A stretch of 64,000 nt of DNA from an uncultured Gammaproteobacteria bacterium (GTDB lineage: Bacteria; Pseudomonadota; Gammaproteobacteria; JACCXJ01). The stretch covers positions 277,598 through 341,597 of the forward strand of contig CAVXTM010000016.1 of assembly GCA_963764725.1 (NCBI GenBank), written 5' to 3'. The number at the start of each line of letters is the position of its first letter. Within the stretch, counting starts at the first letter, position 1. The notes beneath the pieces were generated by a model. It was not told the DNA's origin. It saw only the letters and a list, made by a program, of their open reading frames with translations, and did no database searches. A program made the translations under genes and the position numbers. Below are positions 1 to 11,156 of this stretch, in pieces.

Positions 1-739
1 GCGGCGCCGACCGCGACAAGCTCGACCCGATCCTCGACGCCTGCGTCGCCGTCTACAAGGAGCAGCTCGACGAGGACGGCCAGGTCGACTTCAAGGGCAA
101 GGCCAAGGCGTTCATCGCGCACCTACGGCTTCCTCGCCTCGATCCTGCCCTACACCAACGCCGAGTGGGAGAAGCTCTCGATCTTCCTGAACTTCCTCGA
201 TCCCGAAGCTGCCGGCGCCCGATCGAGGAGGACCTGTCGAAGGGCATCCTCGAAGCGATCGACATGGACAGCTACCGGGTCGAGAAGCAGGCGGCGGTGA
301 AGATCCAGCTCCCGGACGCGGACGCCGAGATCGAGCCGGTGCCGACGACCGGCGGCGGCCACAAGCCCGAGCCCGAGCTCGACCGGCTCTCGAACATCCT
401 CAAGACCTTCAACGACCAGTTCGGCAACATCCCGTGGACCGACGCCGACCGCGTGCACAAGCTGATCACCGAGGACATCCCGGACCGCGTCGCCGCCGAC
501 ACGGCCTACCAGAACGCCAAGCAGAACTCCGACAAGCAGAACGCCCGCATCGAGCACGACAAGGCGCTGGCGCGCGTGATGACGGCCGTGCTGAAGGACG
601 ACACGGAGCTGTTCAAGCAGTTCAGGACAACGAGTCGTTCCGGCGCTGGCTGACGGACACGGTGTTCGGGCTGACCTACGAATCATCGGGGGAAGATCCG
701 CGAGCGAGCATGCGACGCAGCGATCGGTATCTCCGGTAG
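1..739 (+). pseudogene. hsdR: Type I restriction enzyme R subunit (HsdR) C-terminal fragment, frameshifted; the 5' part lies outside the window
   Basis: Translation across three frames gives the HsdR C-terminal signature ...FKGKAKAFIAH|YGFLASILPYTNAEWEKLSIFLNFL|IPKLPAP|IEEDLSKGILEAIDMDSYRVEKQAA...ELDRLSNILKTFNDQFGNIPWTDADRVHKLI...KDDTELFKQF|VQDNESFRRWLTDTVFGLTY. At least four frame changes fall between about 118 and 625 (two single-G insertions near 200 and 221). Confidence 0.6.
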
Positions 740-946
740 ATTCACGCACAATTTCCTGAGCAGCTCTCAAGAACGACTCGAGCTTGTTGACGTGGCGAGT
801 TTACTCGCTAGAATGATGCCTTTGTGCACTGCGGCAATTATTGACTCGAATGCGCCCTACCCTACGCCCGACGCGACCGTTCTTCTCGTCGGGGCCTTGC
901 GCCAAACATCGCCACCGGTGAGCTTGGTCGTTTAGGCGCCTCAGCG

Positions 947-1750
947 TCACACCGCCGGAACGGTGCCGCCGTCGATAACGTATTCGCTACCGTTAATCGA
1001 GGCTGCCCGGTCGGAGACGAGGAAGGCCACCAGTTCTGCGACCTCGTCTGGCTGGCCGGGTCGGCCAATCGGAATGCCGCCGAGCGAATTCATCAAACCC
1101 TGGCGGGCTGCGTCTTCGCCGGTCCCGGCTTTTTCGGCGAGACGGACGATCAGGCGATGTGCGGCCGCGGTTTCGATAAATCCAGGCGCAACCGTGTTGA
1201 CCCGGATACCCTTGGGCCCGAGTTCCTTTGACAGCCCCTTGCTGTACGTCGTGAGGGCGGCTTTGGCGGCCGCGTAAGCGAGCGTTGCCTCGAATAGCGG
1301 CAGCCGTCGCTGGATGGAAGAGATGTGCACAATGACGCCGTACCGCTGCTTGAGCATTCCGGGTATGAATGCACGATCCAGCCGAACCGCGGGGAATAGG
1401 TTGAGATTGATCTCCTTCTGCCAGTCCTCATCCGTGAGTGCGAGTGCGCCGCCACTCGGTGCACTGGAACCGCCAACTACGTTGACGAGAATGTCGACGC
1501 CTCCGAAGCGCTGAAGCACTTGCTCGGCCACTTTGTCCGCACCTTGGCGCGTGCTGATGTCGGCCTGAACAAACAGTCCCACCGTTTGCCCCTCCGGCAG
1601 GGGTGAACGCGCAGTCGTAGCCACCATCGCACCGCTGCCGACCAGGCGTTGCACGATGGCCTGCCCCATGCCCTCCGTGCCCCCAGTGACCAGGACACGC
1701 TTGCCCGCGAATTCTGTCGGGTCGAACGAAAACCTTGAAGCGGAGGCCAT
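947..1750 (-). CDS. SDR family NAD(P)-dependent oxidoreductase
   Basis: The protein begins MASASRF..KRVLVTGGTEGMGQAIVQRL (TGxxxGxG Rossmann motif), contains YAAAKAAL (the YxxxK catalytic motif) and PGFIET. ATG at 1748-1750. Confidence 0.85.
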   Translation of the reverse strand: MASASRFSFDPTEFAGKRVLVTGGTEGMGQAIVQRLVGSGAMVATTARSPLPEGQTVGLFVQADISTRQGADKVAEQVLQRFGGVDILVNVVGGSSAPSGGALALTDEDWQKEINLNLFPAVRLDRAFIPGMLKQRYGVIVHISSIQRRLPLFEATLAYAAAKAALTTYSKGLSKELGPKGIRVNTVAPGFIETAAAHRLIVRLAEKAGTGEDAARQGLMNSLGGIPIGRPGQPDEVAELVAFLVSDRAASINGSEYVIDGGTVPAV

Positions 1751-2079
1751 CACGAGATCTCCAGGCGCTCGATCTTTCCCCCGGTCAGGGTGAAGACGTA
1801 GCGCAGATCGATCGGGCTGCCCGGGAAGTCGCCCGATACCCGACCCGTGAGAATCGTTTTGCCGCCCGCCTGCGCAACGTCGAGTATTTCGACAGTCGGG
1901 CGGTACTTCTTTCCGACCTCCGTCGCCCACTGTCGGATGGCGGCAATGCCTTGGCGGTCCCGTCCCTCATCCCGGACGACGGCAGCTTCACTGAAACTTG
2001 CTGCCACCGCGTCGACGTCTTGGGCGTTCGCAGCTGCAATGTAGTTTGCAACCGGCTCGGTAAGTGTCGTGATCTTCAT
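1750..2079 (-). CDS. NTF2-like / SnoaL-like small protein (ketosteroid-isomerase fold)
   Basis: 109 aa, MKITTLTEPVANYIAAANAQDVDAVAASFSE...; overlaps the SDR gene start by 1 nt, suggesting an operon. Confidence 0.55.
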   Translation of the reverse strand: MKITTLTEPVANYIAAANAQDVDAVAASFSEAAVVRDEGRDRQGIAAIRQWATEVGKKYRPTVEILDVAQAGGKTILTGRVSGDFPGSPIDLRYVFTLTGGKIERLEIS

Positions 2080-2135
2080 GTCGATTCCTTTTCCGCGTGT
2101 TGCATTCGATTTATTATTGGCTCTACGCTAACCAA

Positions 2136-2525
2136 ATGACAAGAACGCACGAAAAAGTAAGTCACTCACCTGAAAGTGAGCGCCTTGAATACACAGCAGC
2201 TTCCGCTGCGCAGGGTATCGAGCGGGCTCTCAGTTTTCTCGAAGGCCGCTGGAAACTGCTGATCCTTTTTCATCTCTTCGGCGGCAAAGTTCTGCGGTTC
2301 TCAGACTTGGAACGCGCGATTCCGGCGATCTCTCAAAAGATGCTCGCACAGCAGCTTCGCCAGTTGGAAGCCGACGGAATCGTCCAGCGGATAGTCCACA
2401 ACCAAGTGCCGCCAAAGGTGGAATATCACCTCACGACTTGGGGACAATCCCTCTGCCCAGCGCTCGATGCCTTGCTGAAATGGTCAGAGAATCGCGGCCG
2501 CCCTTCTGCGGATGTGGGCGCCTAG
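2136..2525 (+). CDS. HxlR-family winged-helix transcriptional regulator
   Basis: ALSFLEGRWKLLILFHLFGGKVLRFSDLERAIPAISQKMLAQQLRQLEADGIVQR..VPPKVEYHLT is the HxlR signature. Divergently placed to the NTF2-like/SDR pair. Confidence 0.8.
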   Translation: MTRTHEKVSHSPESERLEYTAASAAQGIERALSFLEGRWKLLILFHLFGGKVLRFSDLERAIPAISQKMLAQQLRQLEADGIVQRIVHNQVPPKVEYHLTTWGQSLCPALDALLKWSENRGRPSADVGA

Positions 2526-2622
2526 CTCAAGGTGGAACGGACGGGCAAGAGCAGCCCGCCGTTCACCACAACGTTAGGCAGCAACCGGGAGCTAGCATCT
2601 AGAATGGGACGAGGAAAACTAC

Positions 2623-3858
2623 TTGTTTGCCGAAGGTGACCTGGACGCGACGCTGCGAGCCCACCAAGGCACCATTGGTGCAAAGATTGATGCGATTCCT
2701 CGCGATCAGTTCATGAATGCACAACCTGAAGAGATCACCGACCATATCCTGTCTGCGATGACGGTTGATCCGTTGGTGATCTACGAGGATCGCGCGGAGA
2801 TGGATCAGCGTGAAACGAAGATTGACGTTAGCGGATGGCGCGACAGAAATCCGTTCGGCGACCGTGGGCCGATCCACGTCGCTGGCGTCGCAGTATCTGT
2901 GTCGATCCCTTTCACTGGTGACTCGTCCTTGTGGAAGCTAAGGCCGAATCAGCGGCAGTCAGTTTTTCCGCGCGCCACAATTGTTAGTTCGCGTGGAGAG
3001 AATGCTGGACATGTCCGCATTGACATGGCGCAACCAACTGACGAGGCGCCAGACCGATTCAAAGCACGCTTAGATGAAGAGGTGAAGACCATCCGTTTCT
3101 ACGTTCAGGCGCAAAAACAGCAAATTGAAGGGTTCAACGCCGGGCTTCGCGCACAAGTTCTTGCCGCAGTTGGAGCAAGGCGAGACCGGATAAAGAAACA
3201 CGAAGGTTTACAGGACATCATGGGCATCCCCTTGAAGCGCAAGGAGGGGGTGCCAGCGCTCGCGCCCGTGAAGATTGCCAGGAAGCTTGTCCGTCCGTTG
3301 CCACCGCCCCCCAAGTCCGGATACAAACCGGAGCCTGGGATTACGGAAGAAGACTATTCGCATATCTTGTCGGTGATTCGGCACGAAGGCAGGACTTTCG
3401 AGACAACTCCGAAGACCTATGCCGTTCACGACGAGGAACAGCTTAGAGACATTCTCCTCGCGCATCTGAATGGCCACTATCAAGGTGACGCTACCGGCGA
3501 GGCGTTTCGACGAAGCGGCAAGACGGATATTCGCATCGAGGATGACGCTCGAGCCGCATTCGTAGCTGAGTGCAAGGTATGGAAGGGACCGAAGGAATTG
3601 TCCCAGGCCATCGACCAGCTTCTTGGCTATCTGACTTGGCGCGACTGCAAGGCCGCCATCGTAGTATTCAACAAGCACAACGCGAAGTTCAGCGGGATCA
3701 TCGACGCCGTCCCTGGGGTCTTCGAGGCTCATCCCCGGTTCCAGCGTGTGCGTGCGGCTGAAGGGGCGGGCGAGTGGCAGTTCGACATGACATCTCGTGA
3801 GGATGAAGGCCGACAGGTGCGTGTTCATGTGTTCGTCTTCAATCTCTTCGTGGCGTAG
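2623..3858 (+). CDS. Hypothetical 411-aa protein with a C-terminal PD-(D/E)xK / Mrr-like nuclease signature; possible stand-alone defence gene
   Basis: Long ORF with a TTG start. The C-terminus reads GDATGEAFRRSGKTDIRIEDDARAAFVAECKVWKG (D..x13..E-x-K), and an R-x5-H element (LRDILLAH) lies nearby. The N-terminal roughly 250 aa resemble no family I recognise. GC is lower than the flanks, and a decayed hsdR is immediately upstream. Confidence 0.5.
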   Translation: MFAEGDLDATLRAHQGTIGAKIDAIPRDQFMNAQPEEITDHILSAMTVDPLVIYEDRAEMDQRETKIDVSGWRDRNPFGDRGPIHVAGVAVSVSIPFTGDSSLWKLRPNQRQSVFPRATIVSSRGENAGHVRIDMAQPTDEAPDRFKARLDEEVKTIRFYVQAQKQQIEGFNAGLRAQVLAAVGARRDRIKKHEGLQDIMGIPLKRKEGVPALAPVKIARKLVRPLPPPPKSGYKPEPGITEEDYSHILSVIRHEGRTFETTPKTYAVHDEEQLRDILLAHLNGHYQGDATGEAFRRSGKTDIRIEDDARAAFVAECKVWKGPKELSQAIDQLLGYLTWRDCKAAIVVFNKHNAKFSGIIDAVPGVFEAHPRFQRVRAAEGAGEWQFDMTSREDEGRQVRVHVFVFNLFVA

Positions 3859-4839
3859 CCGCCCAACCCTCCGCTCAACGCGGACGCGCCGCAAGCGGCG
3901 CGCCGGTTAACGGCACGTTAGGCGGCACGGGGGCTTGAAGGCTGCTATCGGCCACCAGACGACCTGAGCCAGCCGCTCGAAGCAGACCTTCAATGGCGCG
4001 TCCCGATGGAATCGGTCACTTCTTGGTGTAGCCGACGTTCACAACAGTTCAAGTCAGACCTGCGGTCTCGGCAGCTCACCACGCTTCACGGCGCCAACGC
4101 CTACGTTTCAAACCGAGGCTGGAGTAGCATTCTTGATTGCGTTATCGACACGTCGAAGATACGATGCCGCCGGTAGATCGACAGCAGACTGGAGGGAGCC
4201 ATGCCGTATATTCACTTGCTCGCCGCCGGGCATGAACTACACGCTAAACCGGCCCTTGCTCGACGGCACGTCGCCGGCGCGCCTGAAGGAAATCGGCGCG
4301 GTAGCCCCTGAGATCAAGGACTACAAGAGCTGGCACACGGTCTGGCTCGGTTTGGCAAAACGCGCAGAACGCGAACAACGGTCGTTGGATGCCGACGAAC
4401 CCCCCGCCTTCACGCCATTTTTTGCGGTTAACCGCAGAAATTTATGCAACTGGAAGGTTTATTAAGGGAATTGTTTCGGTGAAGGGTGGGTGATGTGGTG
4501 GCTATGGGCATCGGGAGAGAGAGAAAGCCAGAGTAGAGGGCGATCGGATCGGGGGGTTGGGTATCGTAATCGGGTTTAGGGAACTGTTAATAATGCCTTT
4601 CAGGGTGGGATTAGGGGTAGCAGGCAAAGGGAGGCCGTGACCCGAAGAAGACACCGGGCGGCAGCGCGGGCGTTTGCAAGTTGAAGGGCTACACAGGGGC
4701 TGGGGATCGTGTCGAGCCGGGTGGTCCGACGTTTGTGGGCATCCATGGGCGGTGGATGCGCCGTGAGCTATGGAAGCGGAGTCGTCTCCACAGGCCTGGC
4801 AGGCCGGCTGCGGCCAAGGGGATAGCTTGAGGAGAGGCA

Positions 4840-5310: not shown

Positions 5311-5413
5311 CGCATGCACCGGAGCCCGCGCAGCTCTGTTCTTGCGTCCCCCGGTTGGTGCCGTGCGCGGGGATGCTGTGTTCCGAAGAAGCCAACAGAC
5401 ACAGGCAATTTAT

Positions 5414-5971
5414 ATGACAGAATCTCCTCCTGGTGGAACGACCAACAGGACCAATCAACGACTGGCATTCATTTTCTCCAGATGGCTATAAGGCTCGCTG
5501 CCAACAACGACAACGCCCTCGACGTTGGTTGTGGAAGTGGCGGCAGGATAGTCGCTACGCTGCTCGATGCAAGTTACAGGAATCGATGTCTCTGAAGCAA
5601 TGCTTAAGTATGCAAGAACGCGCCATCCAGATTCGGATTTTATACATGCTGACATCTGCGAATGGAAACCTCAGGAGCAGTACGATGCGATAATAGCTCG
5701 GGATAGTATCTTTCACGTACCTTACTCTGAACAACGCAGAGTTATCGGGAAACTGTGTGATGCTCTCGCAAACGGTGGGATAATTCTGTTTACTGCAGGT
5801 GGAGTAGATGGTGAGATAACTGGACAGATGTGCGGGCAGCATTTCTACTACAGCTCATTGGCATAAGAAAAATACTTGAGGATAATGAAAGAGAATGGGT
5901 GTAAGTGCATTCTCATGGAGCGGGATCAACATCCAGAAGAGCATGTGGTCTTTATCGGCGCAAAGGGCTAA
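5414..5971 (+). pseudogene. Class I SAM-dependent methyltransferase, low GC, disrupted by two frameshifts and an in-frame TAA
   Basis: Motif I LDVGCGSGG appears in frame 1 (5400-5575). The continuation VTGIDVSEAMLKYAR...GGIILFTAGG is in frame 2, then TAA at 5864-5866, then an in-frame tail EKYLRIMKENGCKCILMERDQHPEEHVVFIGAKG*. Local GC is about 48% against about 64% in the flanks. Confidence 0.6.
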
Positions 5972-6025
5972 CAATCACATTCACCGGAGGGGCGTTAGAC
6001 GGAGCGAAGAACGAGGACTTGATCC

Positions 6026-6772
6026 ATGAGTACCGTGAACGAACTCTGGCCGAAGGCTGTCGAGGACGGGTTGATCCCGACCGACAACGCGATGGGCATC
6101 ATGACCGAGGAACCCTCACCCGCGGCCCAGGCGTTCATCGAACTGGCGGCCAGCGCCGGCCGGCCGCTGCTGGAGATCGGTGCGGCCTACGGCAACGCCA
6201 CACTGCCCGCGCTGCGCGCCGGTGGCACGGTGATCGCGAACGACCTTTCGGCCTCGGAACTCGGCGTGTTGGCATCGACCGCGCCAAATGAGGATCGCAA
6301 GCGGCTCGTGCTGATGCCGGCGCGGTTTCCCGATCAAATTCGCCTCGGCGACGGCAGCTTGAGTGGAATGCTTGCCGCGCAAGTACTGCATTTCTTCGAT
6401 GGACCGACGGTCGACCTGGCCTTCCACAGCGCCCTTCGCTGGCTCGAGCCGGGCGGGGCCTTGTACGTGGTCGTGATGACACCCAGCCTGAGCTTCTACA
6501 GCCAGTTCCGGCCGGAGTATGAGAAGCGAGCCCGCCGTGGCGAACGCTGGCCGGGAATTTTCGATCCTCGCACCGTCGCCACGCCGGATTGGAAGGAGAG
6601 ACTCCCGCCGATGGTGCATCTCTTTGAGAAAGAGGTGCTGCGGCGTTGCGCGGAGGAGGCCGGCTTCACCGTGGAGACCTTGAAATACTTCTGCTTCCGC
6701 CATTTTCCAGCGAAGCACCGCACCGACGGTCACGAGTTCCTTACGCTCACCGCTCGGAAACCTGTTGCTTAG
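6026..6772 (+). CDS. Class I SAM-dependent methyltransferase
   Basis: 248 aa; LEIGAAYGNATLPAL (motif I-like) ...LEPGGALYVVV (motif post-II); GC typical of the host. Confidence 0.75.
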   Translation: MSTVNELWPKAVEDGLIPTDNAMGIMTEEPSPAAQAFIELAASAGRPLLEIGAAYGNATLPALRAGGTVIANDLSASELGVLASTAPNEDRKRLVLMPARFPDQIRLGDGSLSGMLAAQVLHFFDGPTVDLAFHSALRWLEPGGALYVVVMTPSLSFYSQFRPEYEKRARRGERWPGIFDPRTVATPDWKERLPPMVHLFEKEVLRRCAEEAGFTVETLKYFCFRHFPAKHRTDGHEFLTLTARKPVA

Positions 6773-8320
6773 CTTCTACAAACTCTTGTGCAAAAAAGCA
6801 AAGAGTGTATGCGGGGCCACGACCTGAGAAGGCATACAACGTACTCCGGATAGCGAGTGCGGTGATGAGCACACGACGACCGAAGGTAGTGAGGTAGTAC
6901 TTGTAGCGATGTCCAATCTTTTTGATGAGGCCATGGGTGCGCAAGCGTTTCAACCAGTAGGAGGCACGGCCGGTGGAGAGATCCCGGAGATGGGCTCGGA
7001 GATCGGAAGCGCGAAAGCCGCTGATGTTCCACTCCCCGCGGGCGAGGGTGATAAAAAGGCTATGATCTTCACGGAGGAAGAGATTGAAGCCCCGATAGGA
7101 GCGGTCGTTCTCTCGTATGGGTTTAGCCATTTTGTCGATGGCGTGCAGAGCTGCATTGGGGTTATCGATGCTGGCCATGAAGCTGAGATAGCGTTCAGTG
7201 GCAGCATGCACCAGCTCTCGCAGATCGGGGAGGCATAGATGTTTTTTCGCAGGGGTGCGAGTTCGAATTGCTTGCGCCCATTGCGTTGTTCCACGAAGCG
7301 GTGGTGTTTGAAGAAGGAGACATCGTTGGCGGTGCATTCCACCCGAGCCATGAGACTGAATTTATCGTAGAGCTTGAGGCTCGCTGGCCCCATATGGTGG
7401 CGGATGCGTGTACCCTGAATGCGGGTGTGAAAATCGTTACCGGCCTCCCCGCTGAAGGCCGAGGTGAGTTTGCGTCCCAAGAAGGTGGCGACGTGTTCTG
7501 CCTTGAGGGCATGCACGGCGGTACGCACGATGGCTTGATAGAGGGGTTGGAAATCGGCTTGGCGGTGGAAGATGACATCGGTCGAGAACTCCACCTGCAT
7601 GAAGCTCCAGTGGTAAGCACTGTGAAAGTGACCCACGATGGGGCAGAAGTGCTTGGCCCATTTATCCAGACGACGATGCAAGCCTTTGGGATCGAGGCTA
7701 TCGGCAAGCGACTGAGCACGGCGGGGATCGCCGATGGACAAGAAGGCATTATCGGCGCGCTCAAAGGCGATCCCTGCCTTTGCCAGTCGGTGGGCCAACC
7801 AGTGATGGCCGTTCAAGTAGACTTGCAGGCGAAACGGCGCCCAGGTGGGTACTCGGACATAACAGAGCCCGAAGATCTCATCGATGAAATAGAAGTAATA
7901 ATGCAAACACTTGCCCGGGGTAGACTTCAAACGGGTCGTATGCTGAAGCTTGTCATGCCAGGGGCGATACGAAGGACAGGCCTCCATCGCCGAGAAGATA
8001 TGCACCAGCCCCGGGTGCTCACCGCGCAAAGCCAAAATCGCTTTGATCCGTTCTTCTTTGCGAAACGCCTTGTAATGGCGGATGAACTCGATTTCCAAAC
8101 AAGCCTCAGCGGCCAGCCCCTCGGCATGGGTCCGAAGCGCCTCGCGCAGCGGTTCCGCCCAGCGGGGGTAGTCAAACAGACGCATACCCCGGACACCCAA
8201 ATACCGGGCCATGGCCTCGGCATGGGCGATCTCCGGAAGCGTGCCAGTGATCACGATGCGGTCAAAGCAACAAAGCACCGCGGCGATCTTCTCTTGATGG
8301 CGTTCGACAAAGGGATTCAT
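6747..8320 (-). mobile_element. Transposase-like gene of a family I do not recognise, split by a frameshift near 7240 into 456-aa and 196-aa ORFs
   Basis: The N-terminal ORF begins MNPFVERHQEKIAAV.... The C-terminal ORF carries a winged-helix-like YWLKRLRTHGLIKKIGHRYKYYLTTFGRR. The pair is bracketed by imperfect 19-bp direct repeats (6770-6788 and 8398-8416). Confidence 0.35.
6770..6788. repeat. Left 19-bp direct repeat TAGCTTCTACAAACTCTTG flanking the transposase-like element; overlaps the methyltransferase stop codon
   Basis: 17/19 identity with 8398-8416 (TAGGTTCTACAAACGCTTG), same orientation. Confidence 0.5.
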
Positions 8321-8397
8321 GGTGACAACTCATCTCAATCTTTATTGCCCATCCGCCAGAATAGTACATTTAACACTTTGGTTCCGGCTCTGCCGGG

Positions 8398-8416
8398 TTA
8401 GGTTCTACAAACGCTT
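8398..8416. repeat. Right 19-bp direct repeat TAGGTTCTACAAACGCTTG
   Basis: Direct-repeat partner of 6770-6788. Confidence 0.5.
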
Positions 8417-8562
8417 GCCGCGCAGGCCACGCCTAAGCCAGCTCCGAGGCGCTACCGGGTCGCCGTCCTGCGCTTTGACCCCTAGGTCCTGTTTGCAACC
8501 GACGCGCGTGGGAGTAGAGTGACGGTATCTGCTCAAGAACAACAACGGAGCCCGCCGCTGCC

Positions 8563-9263
8563 ATGCGAGTCCTCGCCGTTCATCCGAGCCCCCTCATGTA
8601 TACCCGGATCTACCTGCGCCTCGAGCCGCTCGGGCTCGAGCTGGTCGCGCAGGCCGTGCGGCGCGCGGGCCATGAGGTGCGGATCATCGACCTACAGGTC
8701 GAGACCCACCGCGATCTCTTCCGACTAATCGAGGGTTGGGCACCGGAGGTCATAGCCTTCTCGTGCAATTACCTCGCGAATATCCCGGAGATAGTGGACC
8801 TCGCCAAGGTCATCAAGGCGGCCCGGCCCCGCTGCTTCGTCTGCGTCGGCGGGCACAGCGCCTCGTTCGTCGCCGAGGAGCTTATCGAGCATGGTGCCGG
8901 AGCCATCGACTGCGTGCTCCGCGGTGAGGGGGAGGCCGGGATCGGCCGGCTTCTCTTGGCCGTCGAGAACGACCGCCGGGCATTAGCCAAGGTGCCGGGC
9001 ACGGTGAGCCCGGAGGGACGCGGCCCGCCGCCGATCTTCGTGCAGAGATGCTATGGAAGTTCAACAGCGTCTATGACCCGCGCTTGCAGATCGCCGATCA
9101 CGAGCGGCCGGCCAGCTACGAAATACGGCTGCCGCCGCCACCCCAGGAGCGCGTCGAGCGGGCGCAGCTCTACGTCCACGCGACCCGCGGCCGGCAGGGA
9201 CGCGCTACCGACGAGGCCACCGAGCGCTTCGTCGAGGAGACCCGCATGGGGACCGGCGGCTAA
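8563..9263 (+). pseudogene. B12-binding radical SAM protein remnant: N-terminal cobalamin-binding domain joined to a C-terminal tail, with the radical-SAM core missing
   Basis: MRVLAVHPSPLMYTRIYLRLEPLGLELVAQAVRRAGHEVRIIDLQ...VIAFSCNYLANIPEIVDL...VCVGGHSASF is a B12-binding domain. Translation degenerates after about residue 150. A separate frame at 9048-9263 (MLWKFNSVYDPRLQIADHERPASYEIRL...) looks like the C-terminal tail of the same family. Confidence 0.5.
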
Positions 9264-9434
9264 GGAGAAAAAGGGGACGATACGGAACAATTCACGGTGT
9301 TCTGCGAGAGACCAGCTAGGAATTTTGCTTGAACCGTGGGTATTTCGCTATTGGGATAGCCTCGTAGGCAGCCTGGCCTGTAATTTTAGCTATACGTGAA
9401 AGCTTCGGGTCAATAGCAAGCCTCGGGCTCAAGG

Positions 9435-10259
9435 TTAAACCATCGTTCCGAGAATGACGCTGGATGCTTTGAAGATCGCAACCGCCCGTTTACCGGCTTC
9501 AAGCCCAAGCGACTGAACGCTTGGATTGGTCACGATCGCGGCGATGCGCCCGCCGCCATCAATATCTAAGACCACCTCCGCGTTTACCGCTCCAGGAATC
9601 ACAGAAGCAACGGTTCCATGGAGTTGGTTGCGGGCGGAAAGCTTGGCTCCATCAAAATCGCTAGCGATGATGATGGAAGATGCCTTAATAAGTGCGAACG
9701 CTTGACTGCCGACCCTCAGTCCGAGTGCCTCTGTGCTTTCTCGGGTCACAACGGCCACGATCCGAGTGTTCTTCCCCACTATAAGTTCGATTTCGTCGTT
9801 GACCGCACCGCTCTTCACGGCAGTGACGACTCCGGAAAACTGGTTTCGGGCACTGCTTTTCATATTCAGGGTTCGCAGCAGATTAAGGTCGGACGTGAGG
9901 TCGATGGCTTCATTGCTCAGCATTTGCACGAACCGTCGATGGGCCGCTTCGATCTGGCCGAAACGCTCGACGAGTTGAAGGCCTCGCGGTGTCAATTGCG
10001 TCCAGCCTCCGCCTCGGCCGCCGCTGCTTCGTTCAACCAGCGGTTCACCCGCCAGATTGTTCATGGTGTCGACCGCATCCCAGGCGGCCTTGTAGCTCAT
10101 GCCAATCGCCTTGGCCGCCTGGGTGATCGAGCCTTTCTCCGCGATGGCGCGCAACAACCCCACGCGGCTACGGCCACCTAGGTTTTCGTCACCGACTTTC
10201 ATCCAGACCGCGCCGTCCAGTTGAATGGGATCGTTAGCTTGATTGGCTGTTTTGGCCAT
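9435..10259 (-). CDS. modE: Molybdate-responsive transcriptional regulator ModE (HTH plus two TOBE/Mop domains)
   Basis: RVGLLRAIAEKGSITQAAKAIGMSYKAAWDAVDTMNN followed by two Mop repeats (NQFSGVVTAV..., NQLHGTVASV...). Confidence 0.85.
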   Translation of the reverse strand: MAKTANQANDPIQLDGAVWMKVGDENLGGRSRVGLLRAIAEKGSITQAAKAIGMSYKAAWDAVDTMNNLAGEPLVERSSGGRGGGWTQLTPRGLQLVERFGQIEAAHRRFVQMLSNEAIDLTSDLNLLRTLNMKSSARNQFSGVVTAVKSGAVNDEIELIVGKNTRIVAVVTRESTEALGLRVGSQAFALIKASSIIIASDFDGAKLSARNQLHGTVASVIPGAVNAEVVLDIDGGGRIAAIVTNPSVQSLGLEAGKRAVAIFKASSVILGTMV

Positions 10260-10457
10260 GAGAATTCCGGATAACCGTTACGGCATCTGTTGCTTGCGGG
10301 CGAAAGCAGACTGGGAACTCGTCACAGTTCGCGCATCGACAAGACCTTGCACATGGCATGGTATTCATCAACATTCAAGCCCAGCGTGCGAACCGAGGCC
10401 GGTAGCCTGCCGTCTCGTGCGTGCTGCCGCACTGCATCGATGGCGCGGCGCTCAAGG

Positions 10458-11156
10458 CTATCCTGCTACCAGCGCATCATGATCCACTGTGTCCAGAATC
10501 GCTCGGCCGTCTTGAATGTAAATCACGGCATCTGCAAAGCAGTCAACATCCTCTTCGTCGTGAGAAATCAGAATCAGTGGAATGTTGAGCTTGGCTTGAA
10601 GCTCCGCCAGTTCCTGACGCAAATGCGCTCGTAGCCCGCGATCAAGCGCGGCAAGCGGTTCATCCAGCAGCAGTGCGCGGGGTTCGGCCACAAGACCACG
10701 GGCCAAGGCGGCCCGCTGACGTTGTCCTCCCGACAGCTGCTCGGGGTATTGATGCGCCACGGGCGCAAGGTGGAATGTTTCAAGCCAGCGGGTTACGGAG
10801 TCGTGCCGCACATTGCGTTTCGGATTCAATAGGCCGGGATGCAGCGCGAACGCAATGTTCTGAACCACCGTGAGGTGAGGGAACAGCGCGTAGTCCTGAA
10901 ATACGTAGGCAAGCTCACGCCGCTGTGGCGGCAAGTCGATGCGTGCGCGATGATCAAACAGGGAAAGCCCTTCTAGTCGAACATGTCCATCGTCGGGTGC
11001 GCTTAGACCAGCGATCATCTTCAGCGTCTGACTTTTGCCTGCACCTGACGGCCCAAACAGAACCAGCCGCCGTGCATTGCTGCGAAAGCGCACGTCGAGC
11101 TTGCAGCTGCGTTTGGTGTTCTCAAAGTGCTTGCGCACATCAACATCCCAAATCAT
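10458..11156 (-). CDS. modC: Molybdate ABC transporter ATP-binding protein
   Basis: Walker A GPSGAGKSQT, signature LSGGQRQRAALARGL, Walker B LLLDEPLAALD. The most plausible start is ATG at 11154-11156 (MIWDVDV...) preceded by GAGGA. Confidence 0.85.
   Translation of the reverse strand: MIWDVDVRKHFENTKRSCKLDVRFRSNARRLVLFGPSGAGKSQTLKMIAGLSAPDDGHVRLEGLSLFDHRARIDLPPQRRELAYVFQDYALFPHLTVVQNIAFALHPGLLNPKRNVRHDSVTRWLETFHLAPVAHQYPEQLSGGQRQRAALARGLVAEPRALLLDEPLAALDRGLRAHLRQELAELQAKLNIPLILISHDEEDVDCFADAVIYIQDGRAILDTVDHDALVAG

Follow-up and report, generated by a model that had tools for sequence, protein, structure and literature searches.

The subject of this analysis is a 411-residue protein encoded near the beginning of a 64,000-nucleotide stretch of DNA from an uncultured Gammaproteobacteria bacterium, referred to here as the window. 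The protein is almost certainly a member of PDC-S54, a family of the PADLOC collection, and carries a nuclease fold; its gene is, as judged from the predicted attC sites on both sides of it, an integron gene cassette. We consider that it is most likely a sensor-plus-nuclease anti-phage cassette, stranded and possibly crippled in the window. This is a sobering outcome for the original prediction, which was made from the letters of the window and took the protein for an orphan and for a novel defence system beside its restriction-modification (R-M) partner: the 'orphan novel nuclease' is a member of a catalogued family, its local copy is frameshifted and stranded, and the hsdR remnant nearby lies outside the R-M arrangement usual for the family.

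The PDC-S54 protein and its nuclease domain

A PADLOC run, proposed at the outset as a check, returned PDC-S54 over the full length of the protein and nothing else. The hidden Markov model of the family (PDLC05036) aligns with residues 1-408 over profile positions 7-406 of 410 (E = 1.6e-127, 424 bits). An exact look-up of the window protein gave no record. A word-indexed search gave 1,582 matches to it, among them P0001 at 96% identity, and clustering at 50% gave 5,145 representatives, 1,896 of them with E ≤1e-30, nearly all 400-430 residues long. A 'Bordetella sp. SCN' fragment in the 96%-identity cluster and a GlnE match to model PRK11072 are hints of a proteobacterial source. Members occur in Nitrospirota, Verrucomicrobiota, Planctomycetota, Pseudomonadota, Desulfobacterota, Chloroflexota, Cyanobacteriota, Bacteroidota, and some archaea, so that 'orphan' is not a fitting description. 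Nor is the candidate new, since PDC-S54 is already one of 145 predicted candidates derived by guilt-by-embedding, in which genes are picked for lying inside operons of BREX, DISARM, or type I R-M systems; the authors cite PrrC as the classic example (Payne, Hughes, Fineran and Jackson 2024, bioRxiv 10.1101/2024.01.29.577857). PDC-S54 is a known, catalogued, and uncharacterised family. The suggested Mrr- or Shedu-like architecture was not borne out at the family level: Mrr_cat (PF04471) gave no match at E ≤10 for the window protein or at E ≤1 for 64 members, and neither the Shedu DUF4263/SduA models (Pfam, PADLOC) nor the HamA (DUF1837) model of PADLOC matched the window protein, which has no helicase neighbour in the window. 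None of the 64 members reaches the threshold of any Pfam model, and the only weak matches that recur among them are to DUF6663 and pPIWI_RE_REase. One member bears the automatic UniRef name 'Restriction endonuclease type IV Mrr domain-containing protein'.

The 1.2-kb open reading frame (ORF) starts with TTG and contains the motif GEAFRRSGKTDIRIEDDARAAFVAECKVWKG, made up of D302 and E316-x-K318 with a D/E spacing of 13 residues, and LRDILLAH is found N-terminal of it; the ORF, its length, and the GEAF/D-ExK pattern are all as first described. Its GC fraction (~0.55-0.58) is indeed lower than that of the flanks (0.62-0.67 for 1-2000, 0.63 for 3601-4000), as had been pointed out, but the dip is a modest one because the window mean is ~0.60.

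An AlphaFold2 model of the whole protein, built from a 64-sequence alignment, has two folded domains with a disordered stretch between them (residues 203-237; pLDDT 78 overall and below 50 in that stretch). Modelled alone, the C-terminal domain reaches a pLDDT of 86.6 and a pTM of 0.87 and adopts the PD-(D/E)xK core of helix, three strands, helix, and strand, in agreement with the restriction-endonuclease fold that had been proposed for this end of the protein. In structure it comes closest to BamHI, OkrAI, BstYI, and BglII, all type II enzymes; the comparison also gave the defence effectors Can2, NucC, HamA, Shedu SduA, and Cap4, and the repair nucleases NucS and Bax1 are among its structural PD-(D/E)xK relatives. 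In the models, E271 is placed on helix 1, E293 on strand 1, D302 on strand 2, and E316 and K318 on strand 3. Across 133 representatives (29-54% identity), E271, E293, K318, and Q332 are present in every sequence, D302 in 132, and E316 in 131. The C-terminal domain is, on the modelled fold, a BamHI-like PD-(D/E)xK nuclease with a complete and essentially invariant predicted active site, and it is this invariance that makes us regard the nuclease assignment as correct.

The N-terminal domain is mildly acidic (median pI 5.4) and evolves faster than the nuclease domain. As had been noted, it has no recognisable family: profile and structure searches found no known family or solved fold for it, no winged helix, and no resemblance to a DNA-binding fold. 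Sequence and profile matches in the PDB to SUMO tags and designed helices were at chance level and were discarded. The linker between the domains has a pI of ~10.5 and is well conserved among close relatives, in which its prolines are invariant; its conservation is lower in distant members.

Integron carriage and the state of the local copy

Two attC sites bracket the gene and delimit the cassette. The downstream site is the sole strict RYYYAAC-N-GTTRRRY match in the 64 kb; its bottom strand forms one imperfect hairpin with bulged bases in which 7/7 box positions are paired, and its single-stranded DNA (ssDNA) fold has an energy of -21.5 kcal/mol (z -2.6). The upstream site, which ends the preceding cassette and provides the G of the G/TT crossover, has 7/7 R-box pairs in a custom scan and an ssDNA fold with z = -3.8 for the bottom and -4.3 for the top strand, with 0/200 shuffles as good. 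A covariance model trained on nine attC-like sites, both of these included, scores them, as training members, at 52.6 (downstream) and 42.9 bits (upstream). In random sequence, sites of comparable quality turn up ~1.2 times on each strand of 64 kb, and by our rough estimate two such sites are unlikely (order 1e-5) to fall within ~45 bp of the gene ends by chance.

The limits of homology support the same boundaries. DNA similarity to relatives is limited to the gene and ~30-70 bp on each side, and the flanks are unrelated: a locus in a Nitrospira metagenome-assembled genome (MAG; L080) is 94% identical over 2577-3927, and a Verrucomicrobiota MAG (L004) and two metagenome contigs (L092, L093) are 88-89% identical over 2572-3869. 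The breakpoints fall at G/TTAGGC (2573-2579) and at CACG/TTAGGC (3917-3923). With attC sites on both sides and breakpoints of the G/TT type, the unit of mobility is an integron cassette instead of the defence island that had been proposed.

Other members of the family are flanked in the same way. Sites like attC begin 3-13 nt past the stop codon in L007, L027, L062, L092, and L093, and L005, L007, and L008 have sites whose ends lie 44-46 nt ahead of the first codon in the alignment, just as the window does. The covariance model also found sites on which it had not been trained, namely four more in L007 and, in each of L004, L008, and L009, one lying +3 to +6 nt from the stop, together with weaker ones in L011, L050, and L044. 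The L007 locus (Gammaproteobacteria MAG CAVZWN010000001.1, 8523-14803) is an integron with its integrase. The intI gene at 8523-9521 on the minus strand lies divergently next to the PDC-S54 homologue, which is the first cassette and is followed by at least five more, with at least six attC sites on one strand. Its product is 54.7% identical (E 1.5e-104) to an IntI1 probe, and an independent check against annotated genes showed 57-61% identity to ones labelled 'integron integrase' or 'class 3 integrase'. The cargo ORFs of this array are 254, 195, 125, 276, and 168 residues long.

No intI was found in the window, which begins ~2.5 kb upstream of the gene, and the covariance model found no third attC above 15 bits in it, nor was a longer cassette array seen. 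With only two attC sites and no intI found, the window locus amounts to the smallest kind of attC cluster that lacks an integrase, similar to what the literature terms a CALIN. The run of gene fragments reported around the gene is real in that positions 1-9.5 kb are fragmentary, but it is not demonstrably a cassette array because no third site exceeds 15 bits. Members flanked by attC sites are mostly at least 58% identical to the window protein, and those embedded in R-M operons are 43-53% identical to it; these identity ranges suggest two clades with different modes of carriage.

The local copy differs from its relatives at the start. Homologues have 417 residues and the N-terminus MxRxNxLF, and the window ORF has 411 because an additional G in codon 4 throws the ancestral ATG at 2604 out of frame, which makes 'clean' an inaccurate description of it. 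Removal of one G at 2613/2614 gives back MGRENYLFAEGD, in agreement with the family consensus, and in the alignment the extra G is missing from both closest relatives (L080 and L004). As a consequence, only a protein shorter by six residues, starting from TTG 2623, could be made. The remainder of the gene is intact, and therefore the frameshift is recent, tolerated, or a sequencing error. The cassette looks stranded, with its two attC sites, no intI found, and no promoter of its own: a scan of the window gave no promoter-like site 5' of the gene on the plus strand. Because of this stranding and of the insertion in codon 4, the local copy may have only weak expression, or it may be a pseudogene of very recent origin.

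A stronger version, in which the gene is a dying remnant inactivated by the frameshift, is possible but in our view doubtful; it would be compatible with a function of the family elsewhere. The insertion cuts the ORF off from its ATG and Shine-Dalgarno sequence, integrase and promoter were sought as just described and not found, and the surroundings are locally decayed, with three frameshifts in hsdR and fragments of HpnR and of methyltransferase genes. Against inactivation, the remaining 411 codons are intact, and at columns conserved in at least 90% of relatives the protein departs only conservatively; the changes in the window lineage (10 synonymous and 4 non-synonymous) are no worse than those of relatives, and we see no relaxed selection there. 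The insertion itself generates GAGGA (2611-2615) 7 nt 5' of the in-frame TTG, the six residues lost are the variable MxRxNx stretch, and the co-oriented HxlR gene upstream could give read-through transcription.

Family context and the proposed mechanism

In a survey of two genes on each side at 81 loci, the only neighbours to recur were type I R-M components (Methylase_S 9, ResIII 9, N6_Mtase 6, HSDR_N 6, and YgjP-like 6), and the remaining neighbours belong to more than 120 different families. The R-M signal comes from nine loci with the order hsdM, hsdS, PDC-S54 gene, hsdR and gaps of 21-62 bp; in at least six of these, a YgjP-like (DUF45) metallopeptidase gene directly follows hsdR. Other contexts are GmrSD/HNH/IS110, HNH/MazG/SLFN helicase, MmeI R-M/PIN, RelE-HigA/IS5/REase, and NACHT/PIN/integrase. 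No conserved partner gene, methyltransferase, or antitoxin was found in the loci surveyed. A downstream partner had seemed possible because L001 and L003 each have a gene for ~195 residues that starts equally far from the PDC-S54 gene, and it was rejected on finding the two proteins unrelated. Given the absence of a conserved partner and contexts with R-M, toxin-antitoxin (TA), integrase, and defence genes, 'candidate single-gene defence system' was a reasonable description. The expectation that homologues lie near R-M or defence genes holds for the nine type I R-M loci of the 81 and for those in defence islands, but not for the copies found among housekeeping genes.

The two domains also occur apart from each other, in half-only homologues found by tblastn of plasmids. 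On a Rhodopseudomonas plasmid (NZ_CP133114.1; L084), the N-terminal domain is a free-standing protein of 201 residues (hhalign 99.5%, E 4e-23) that also matches positions 12-199 of the PADLOC PDC-S54 profile. Its gene lies 5 bp upstream of one for a 1,033-residue Peptidase_C14-DEAD-Helicase_C protein, with a HamB-like helicase part, in an island that encodes TIR, caspase-family, PLD-like, and AAA proteins. The solo form comprises at least 120 clusters; the caspase-helicase gene follows it after 5-11 bp in four of five loci, and a Tn7-like element takes its place in the fifth. TIR, caspase, PLD, reverse transcriptase, Fic, and integrase genes are neighbours of the two-gene module. PADLOC 2.0 picks this module up only in fragments (the N-terminal half as PDC-S54, and partial matches to HamB and PDC-M23B), and to us the pair looks like an uncatalogued defence system. 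The nuclease domain, for its part, occupies residues 177-342 of a 344-residue protein on a Pantoea agglomerans plasmid (NZ_CP134740.1; L085:4488-5522) whose N-terminus differs from the PDC-S54 domain and has a weak likeness to HsdS specificity subunits (PADLOC E 2.6e-4); this protein may be a DNA-reading variant. Neither the solo N-domain proteins nor the Pantoea protein has the interdomain linker, for which a docking peptide, a nucleic-acid arm, and a domain swap are candidate roles. Because both domains recur in other combinations, we regard the N-terminal domain as a reusable regulatory or sensing module and not as part of the catalytic machinery.

From these observations we lean towards a mechanism in which the N-terminal domain senses infection and otherwise holds the nuclease off. 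On an infection cue, the released nuclease, by analogy with its BamHI-type relatives probably a dimer or higher oligomer, would cut DNA in a metal-dependent manner, and the outcome would be destruction of the phage DNA or abortive infection. More tentatively, the N-terminal domain could be a hitherto undescribed, portable infection-sensing or adaptor module that acts on a nuclease in cis in PDC-S54 and on a caspase-DEAD-helicase in trans, which would make PDC-S54 an integron-disseminated abortive-infection nuclease of a new mechanism.

The type II structural matches of the nuclease domain could also be those of a restriction endonuclease that acts on its own, either type II-like or a modification-dependent type IV enzyme, whose N-terminal domain reads DNA and which needs no sensing step. 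The repeated linkage of PDC-S54 to R-M, the UniRef name that invokes type IV Mrr, and the Pantoea protein with its weakly HsdS-like region would fit such an enzyme. We nevertheless think it rather unlikely: no methyltransferase is a conserved partner in the loci surveyed, no Mrr_cat or other restriction-endonuclease Pfam model matches any of the 64 members even at E ≤1, and the N-terminal domain is acidic, unlike any DNA-binding fold, and stands also beside a caspase-helicase protein, where DNA reading makes little sense.

Cassette carriage itself raises the question of a selfish or stabilising toxic nuclease that promotes retention of a cassette array or mobile element. Integron addiction modules promote retention of their carrier arrays; PDC-S54 genes often adjoin TA genes, integrases, and insertion sequence (IS) elements, and the extreme conservation of the nuclease core across phyla implies frequent horizontal transfer, as such an element would show. 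We hold this to be improbable, since no conserved antitoxin partner exists in the loci surveyed, the family is rare in phages (two weak matches), and both the hsdS-hsdR embedding and the reuse of the N-terminal domain with a caspase-helicase in TIR/caspase/PLD islands fit immunity better. A housekeeping nuclease of DNA repair or recombination, as might be thought of from NucS and Bax1 and from the copies among housekeeping genes, is hardly credible in the face of carriage on integron cassettes, a patchy spread across phyla in which near-identity of the DNA stops at the limits of the gene, and no synteny with repair genes in the loci surveyed.

Several points weigh against our preferred reading of a sensor and nuclease carried on a defence cassette. 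The full-length model has no confident contact between the domains (pTM 0.43), and the sensing role is read from the architecture only. Some members stand alone among housekeeping genes, for example at the Nitrospira locus L002. We found no experimental report on any PDC-S54 member in the searchable literature, and a study that tried eight PADLOC candidates picked at random, PDC-S54 not among them, saw protection of Escherichia coli by four. As to the cassette, the attC calls come from a custom scan and a small self-built model and not from IntegronFinder, and a relaxed attC pattern by itself is at chance level (~6 per 64 kb), for which reason it was not used on its own. As to the frameshift, a single-base insertion could be a sequencing error.

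Integron carriage, the sharing of the N-terminal domain with a caspase-helicase module for which PADLOC 2.0 has no system, and the split of the clades by context are possibly new; they are leads for the PDC-S54 family and not peculiar to the window. If PDC-S54 does work in defence, a compact sensor-nuclease spread across many phyla joins the immune repertoire, and integrons would carry defence genes well outside Vibrio and the clinical class 1 integrons. The N-terminal domain common to the caspase-helicase system would then allow the outputs of two effectors to be set side by side for a single putative sensor and, should it prove to be a portable sensing module, would offer a route to the phage trigger of PDC-S54. 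For experiments, an intact homologue is a better target than the frameshifted copy in the window.

Neighbouring features and comparison with known systems

Table 1. Positions of the gene, its predicted domains and cassette boundaries, the neighbouring features of the window, and the loci used for comparison (locus coordinates carry the locus name)
Feature	Position	Strand	Detail
ORF	2623..3858	+	TTG start, 411 aa, PADLOC family PDC-S54 member
N-terminal domain	2623..3222	+	aa 1-200: helices, four-stranded sheet, 52-residue helix
Linker	3223..3342	+	aa 201-240, basic, Pro-rich RKLVRPLPPPPKSGYKPEPGI, predicted disordered
C-terminal PD-(D/E)xK nuclease domain, BamHI-like variant (modelled)	3343..3855	+	aa 241-411
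Putative catalytic residues	3433..3576	+	E271 3433-3435, E293 3499-3501, D302 3526-3528, E316 3568-3570, K318 3574-3576
Ancestral ATG, now out of frame	2604..2606	+	Shine-Dalgarno-like GGGAG at 2586-2590
+1 insertion, codon 4	2613..2614	+	GG where relatives carry one G
Integron-type cassette (predicted), 1,344 bp	2574..3917	+	begins with the TTAGGC behind the upstream crossover G and ends on the G of the downstream GTTAGGC
Upstream attC-like site, 60 bp	2520..2579	+	R'' GCCTAGC over HxlR stop codon; R' GTTAGGC 2573-2579
Downstream attC site (predicted), 63 bp	3861..3923	+	R'' GCCCAAC 3861-3867, 3 nt past stop; R' GTTAGGC 3917-3923
hsdR 3' remnant, cut by window edge	~3-740	+	three frame switches needed within ~720 bp
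SDR gene	947-1930	-	window neighbour
SnoaL-like gene	1750-2079	-	window neighbour
HxlR-family regulator	2097..2525	+	stop codon inside upstream attC site
SAM-methyltransferase ORFs and fragments	5314-6772	+	5567-5866; 6026-6772
Largest ORF of decayed stretch, 456 aa	6950-8320	-	no Pfam, NCBIfam, PADLOC match
Truncated hopanoid C-3 methylase HpnR (B12-binding radical SAM)	8563-9399	+	first 162 of ~490 residues match, then frame lost
R-M-embedded loci	L033, L034, L036, L041, L045, L055, L056, L070, L076	n/a	e.g. L055:6137-15190
L007 attC sites	11236, 12057, 12715, 13205, 14110, 14702	same strand	positions in L007
Solo N-domain + caspase-helicase module	L084:5953-9665; L088, L089, L090 at 7001-10777	n/a	partner ~1,033-1,054 aa

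The decayed type I R-M gene said to stand beside the nuclease gene is real, but its link to it is weak. When stitched across its frame switches, the hsdR peptide matches, end to end, plasmid genes that bear the annotation 'type I restriction endonuclease subunit R' (tblastn, 85% identity, E 2e-128), one of these being on a Meiothermus taiwanensis plasmid at 85% protein identity; Pfam, NCBIfam, and PADLOC do not recognise it. It lies 1.9 kb upstream of the gene, with three unrelated genes between. A tblastn search of the window with the HsdR, HsdS, HsdM, and YgjP proteins of the R-M-embedded loci found nothing, which puts the remnant in another subfamily of type I. The window gene is not embedded, whereas the embedded members are placed between hsdS and hsdR.

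The HxlR and SDR neighbours are present as originally described. HxlR probably belongs to the preceding cassette, possibly with the divergent SnoaL and SDR genes, because its stop codon lies within the upstream attC site; no attC further upstream that would close this cassette was found in the window. Decay is local: the genes of 1-9.5 kb are in fragments, and long intact ORFs are densely packed over 10-64 kb. Within the decayed part, plasmid homologues of the largest ORF cover only its residues 3-362 (one is annotated as an ArsR-family regulator), its C-terminal ~95 residues may be frameshift read-through, and an ORF of 377 residues overlaps it on the opposite strand. The methyltransferase ORF of 248 residues has a weak PADLOC 'mad2' match (E 3.5e-9) that is probably generic similarity. 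No tRNA gene marking an island border was found in the window.

Among known systems, the closest likeness is to PDC-S54 itself, which the window gene matches end to end as a single gene, set apart only by its frameshifted start; the embedding in type I R-M operons is shown by other members. PADLOC gives neither a domain description nor a mechanism for the family, and integron carriage and the portable N-terminal domain do not figure in the accessible portions of the main text of Payne et al.

BamHI, BglII, BstYI, and OkrAI share the fold of the C-terminal domain, but their sequence identity to it is only 9-13% and there is no Pfam restriction-endonuclease match; they have no counterpart of the 240-residue N-terminal extension, and the window protein has no cognate methyltransferase. 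Shedu, HamA (Hachiman), Cap4, NucC, and Can2 likewise resemble PDC-S54 in the nuclease fold, but they show no PADLOC or Pfam match to it, their N-terminal domains are unrelated to that of PDC-S54, and the fused form of PDC-S54 encodes no signalling partner or helicase. For Hachiman in particular, a HamB-like helicase adjoins only the solo N-domain relatives and not the window gene.

One clade of PDC-S54 takes the same position between hsdS and hsdR as PrrC of EcoprrI, with the short gaps given above. PrrC is an ABC-ATPase/HEPN-type tRNA nuclease, so that fold and probable substrate differ, and most members of PDC-S54, that of the window included, are not embedded.

Integron cassettes are an established store of compact defence systems, the bacteriophage-resistance integron cassettes or BRiCs (Kieffer et al. 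10.1101/2024.07.02.601719; Darracq et al. 10.1101/2024.07.02.601686); PDC-S54 is not named in the portions covered. At 1.34 kb the window cassette is large for its kind, and it differs in having two attC sites with no intI found in the window. In other respects the PDC-S54 cassette agrees with the BRiCs: it is compact, promoterless, and single-gene, its attC site follows right after the stop codon, and the family is met with within integrons (L007) as well as elsewhere, a pattern described for other systems.

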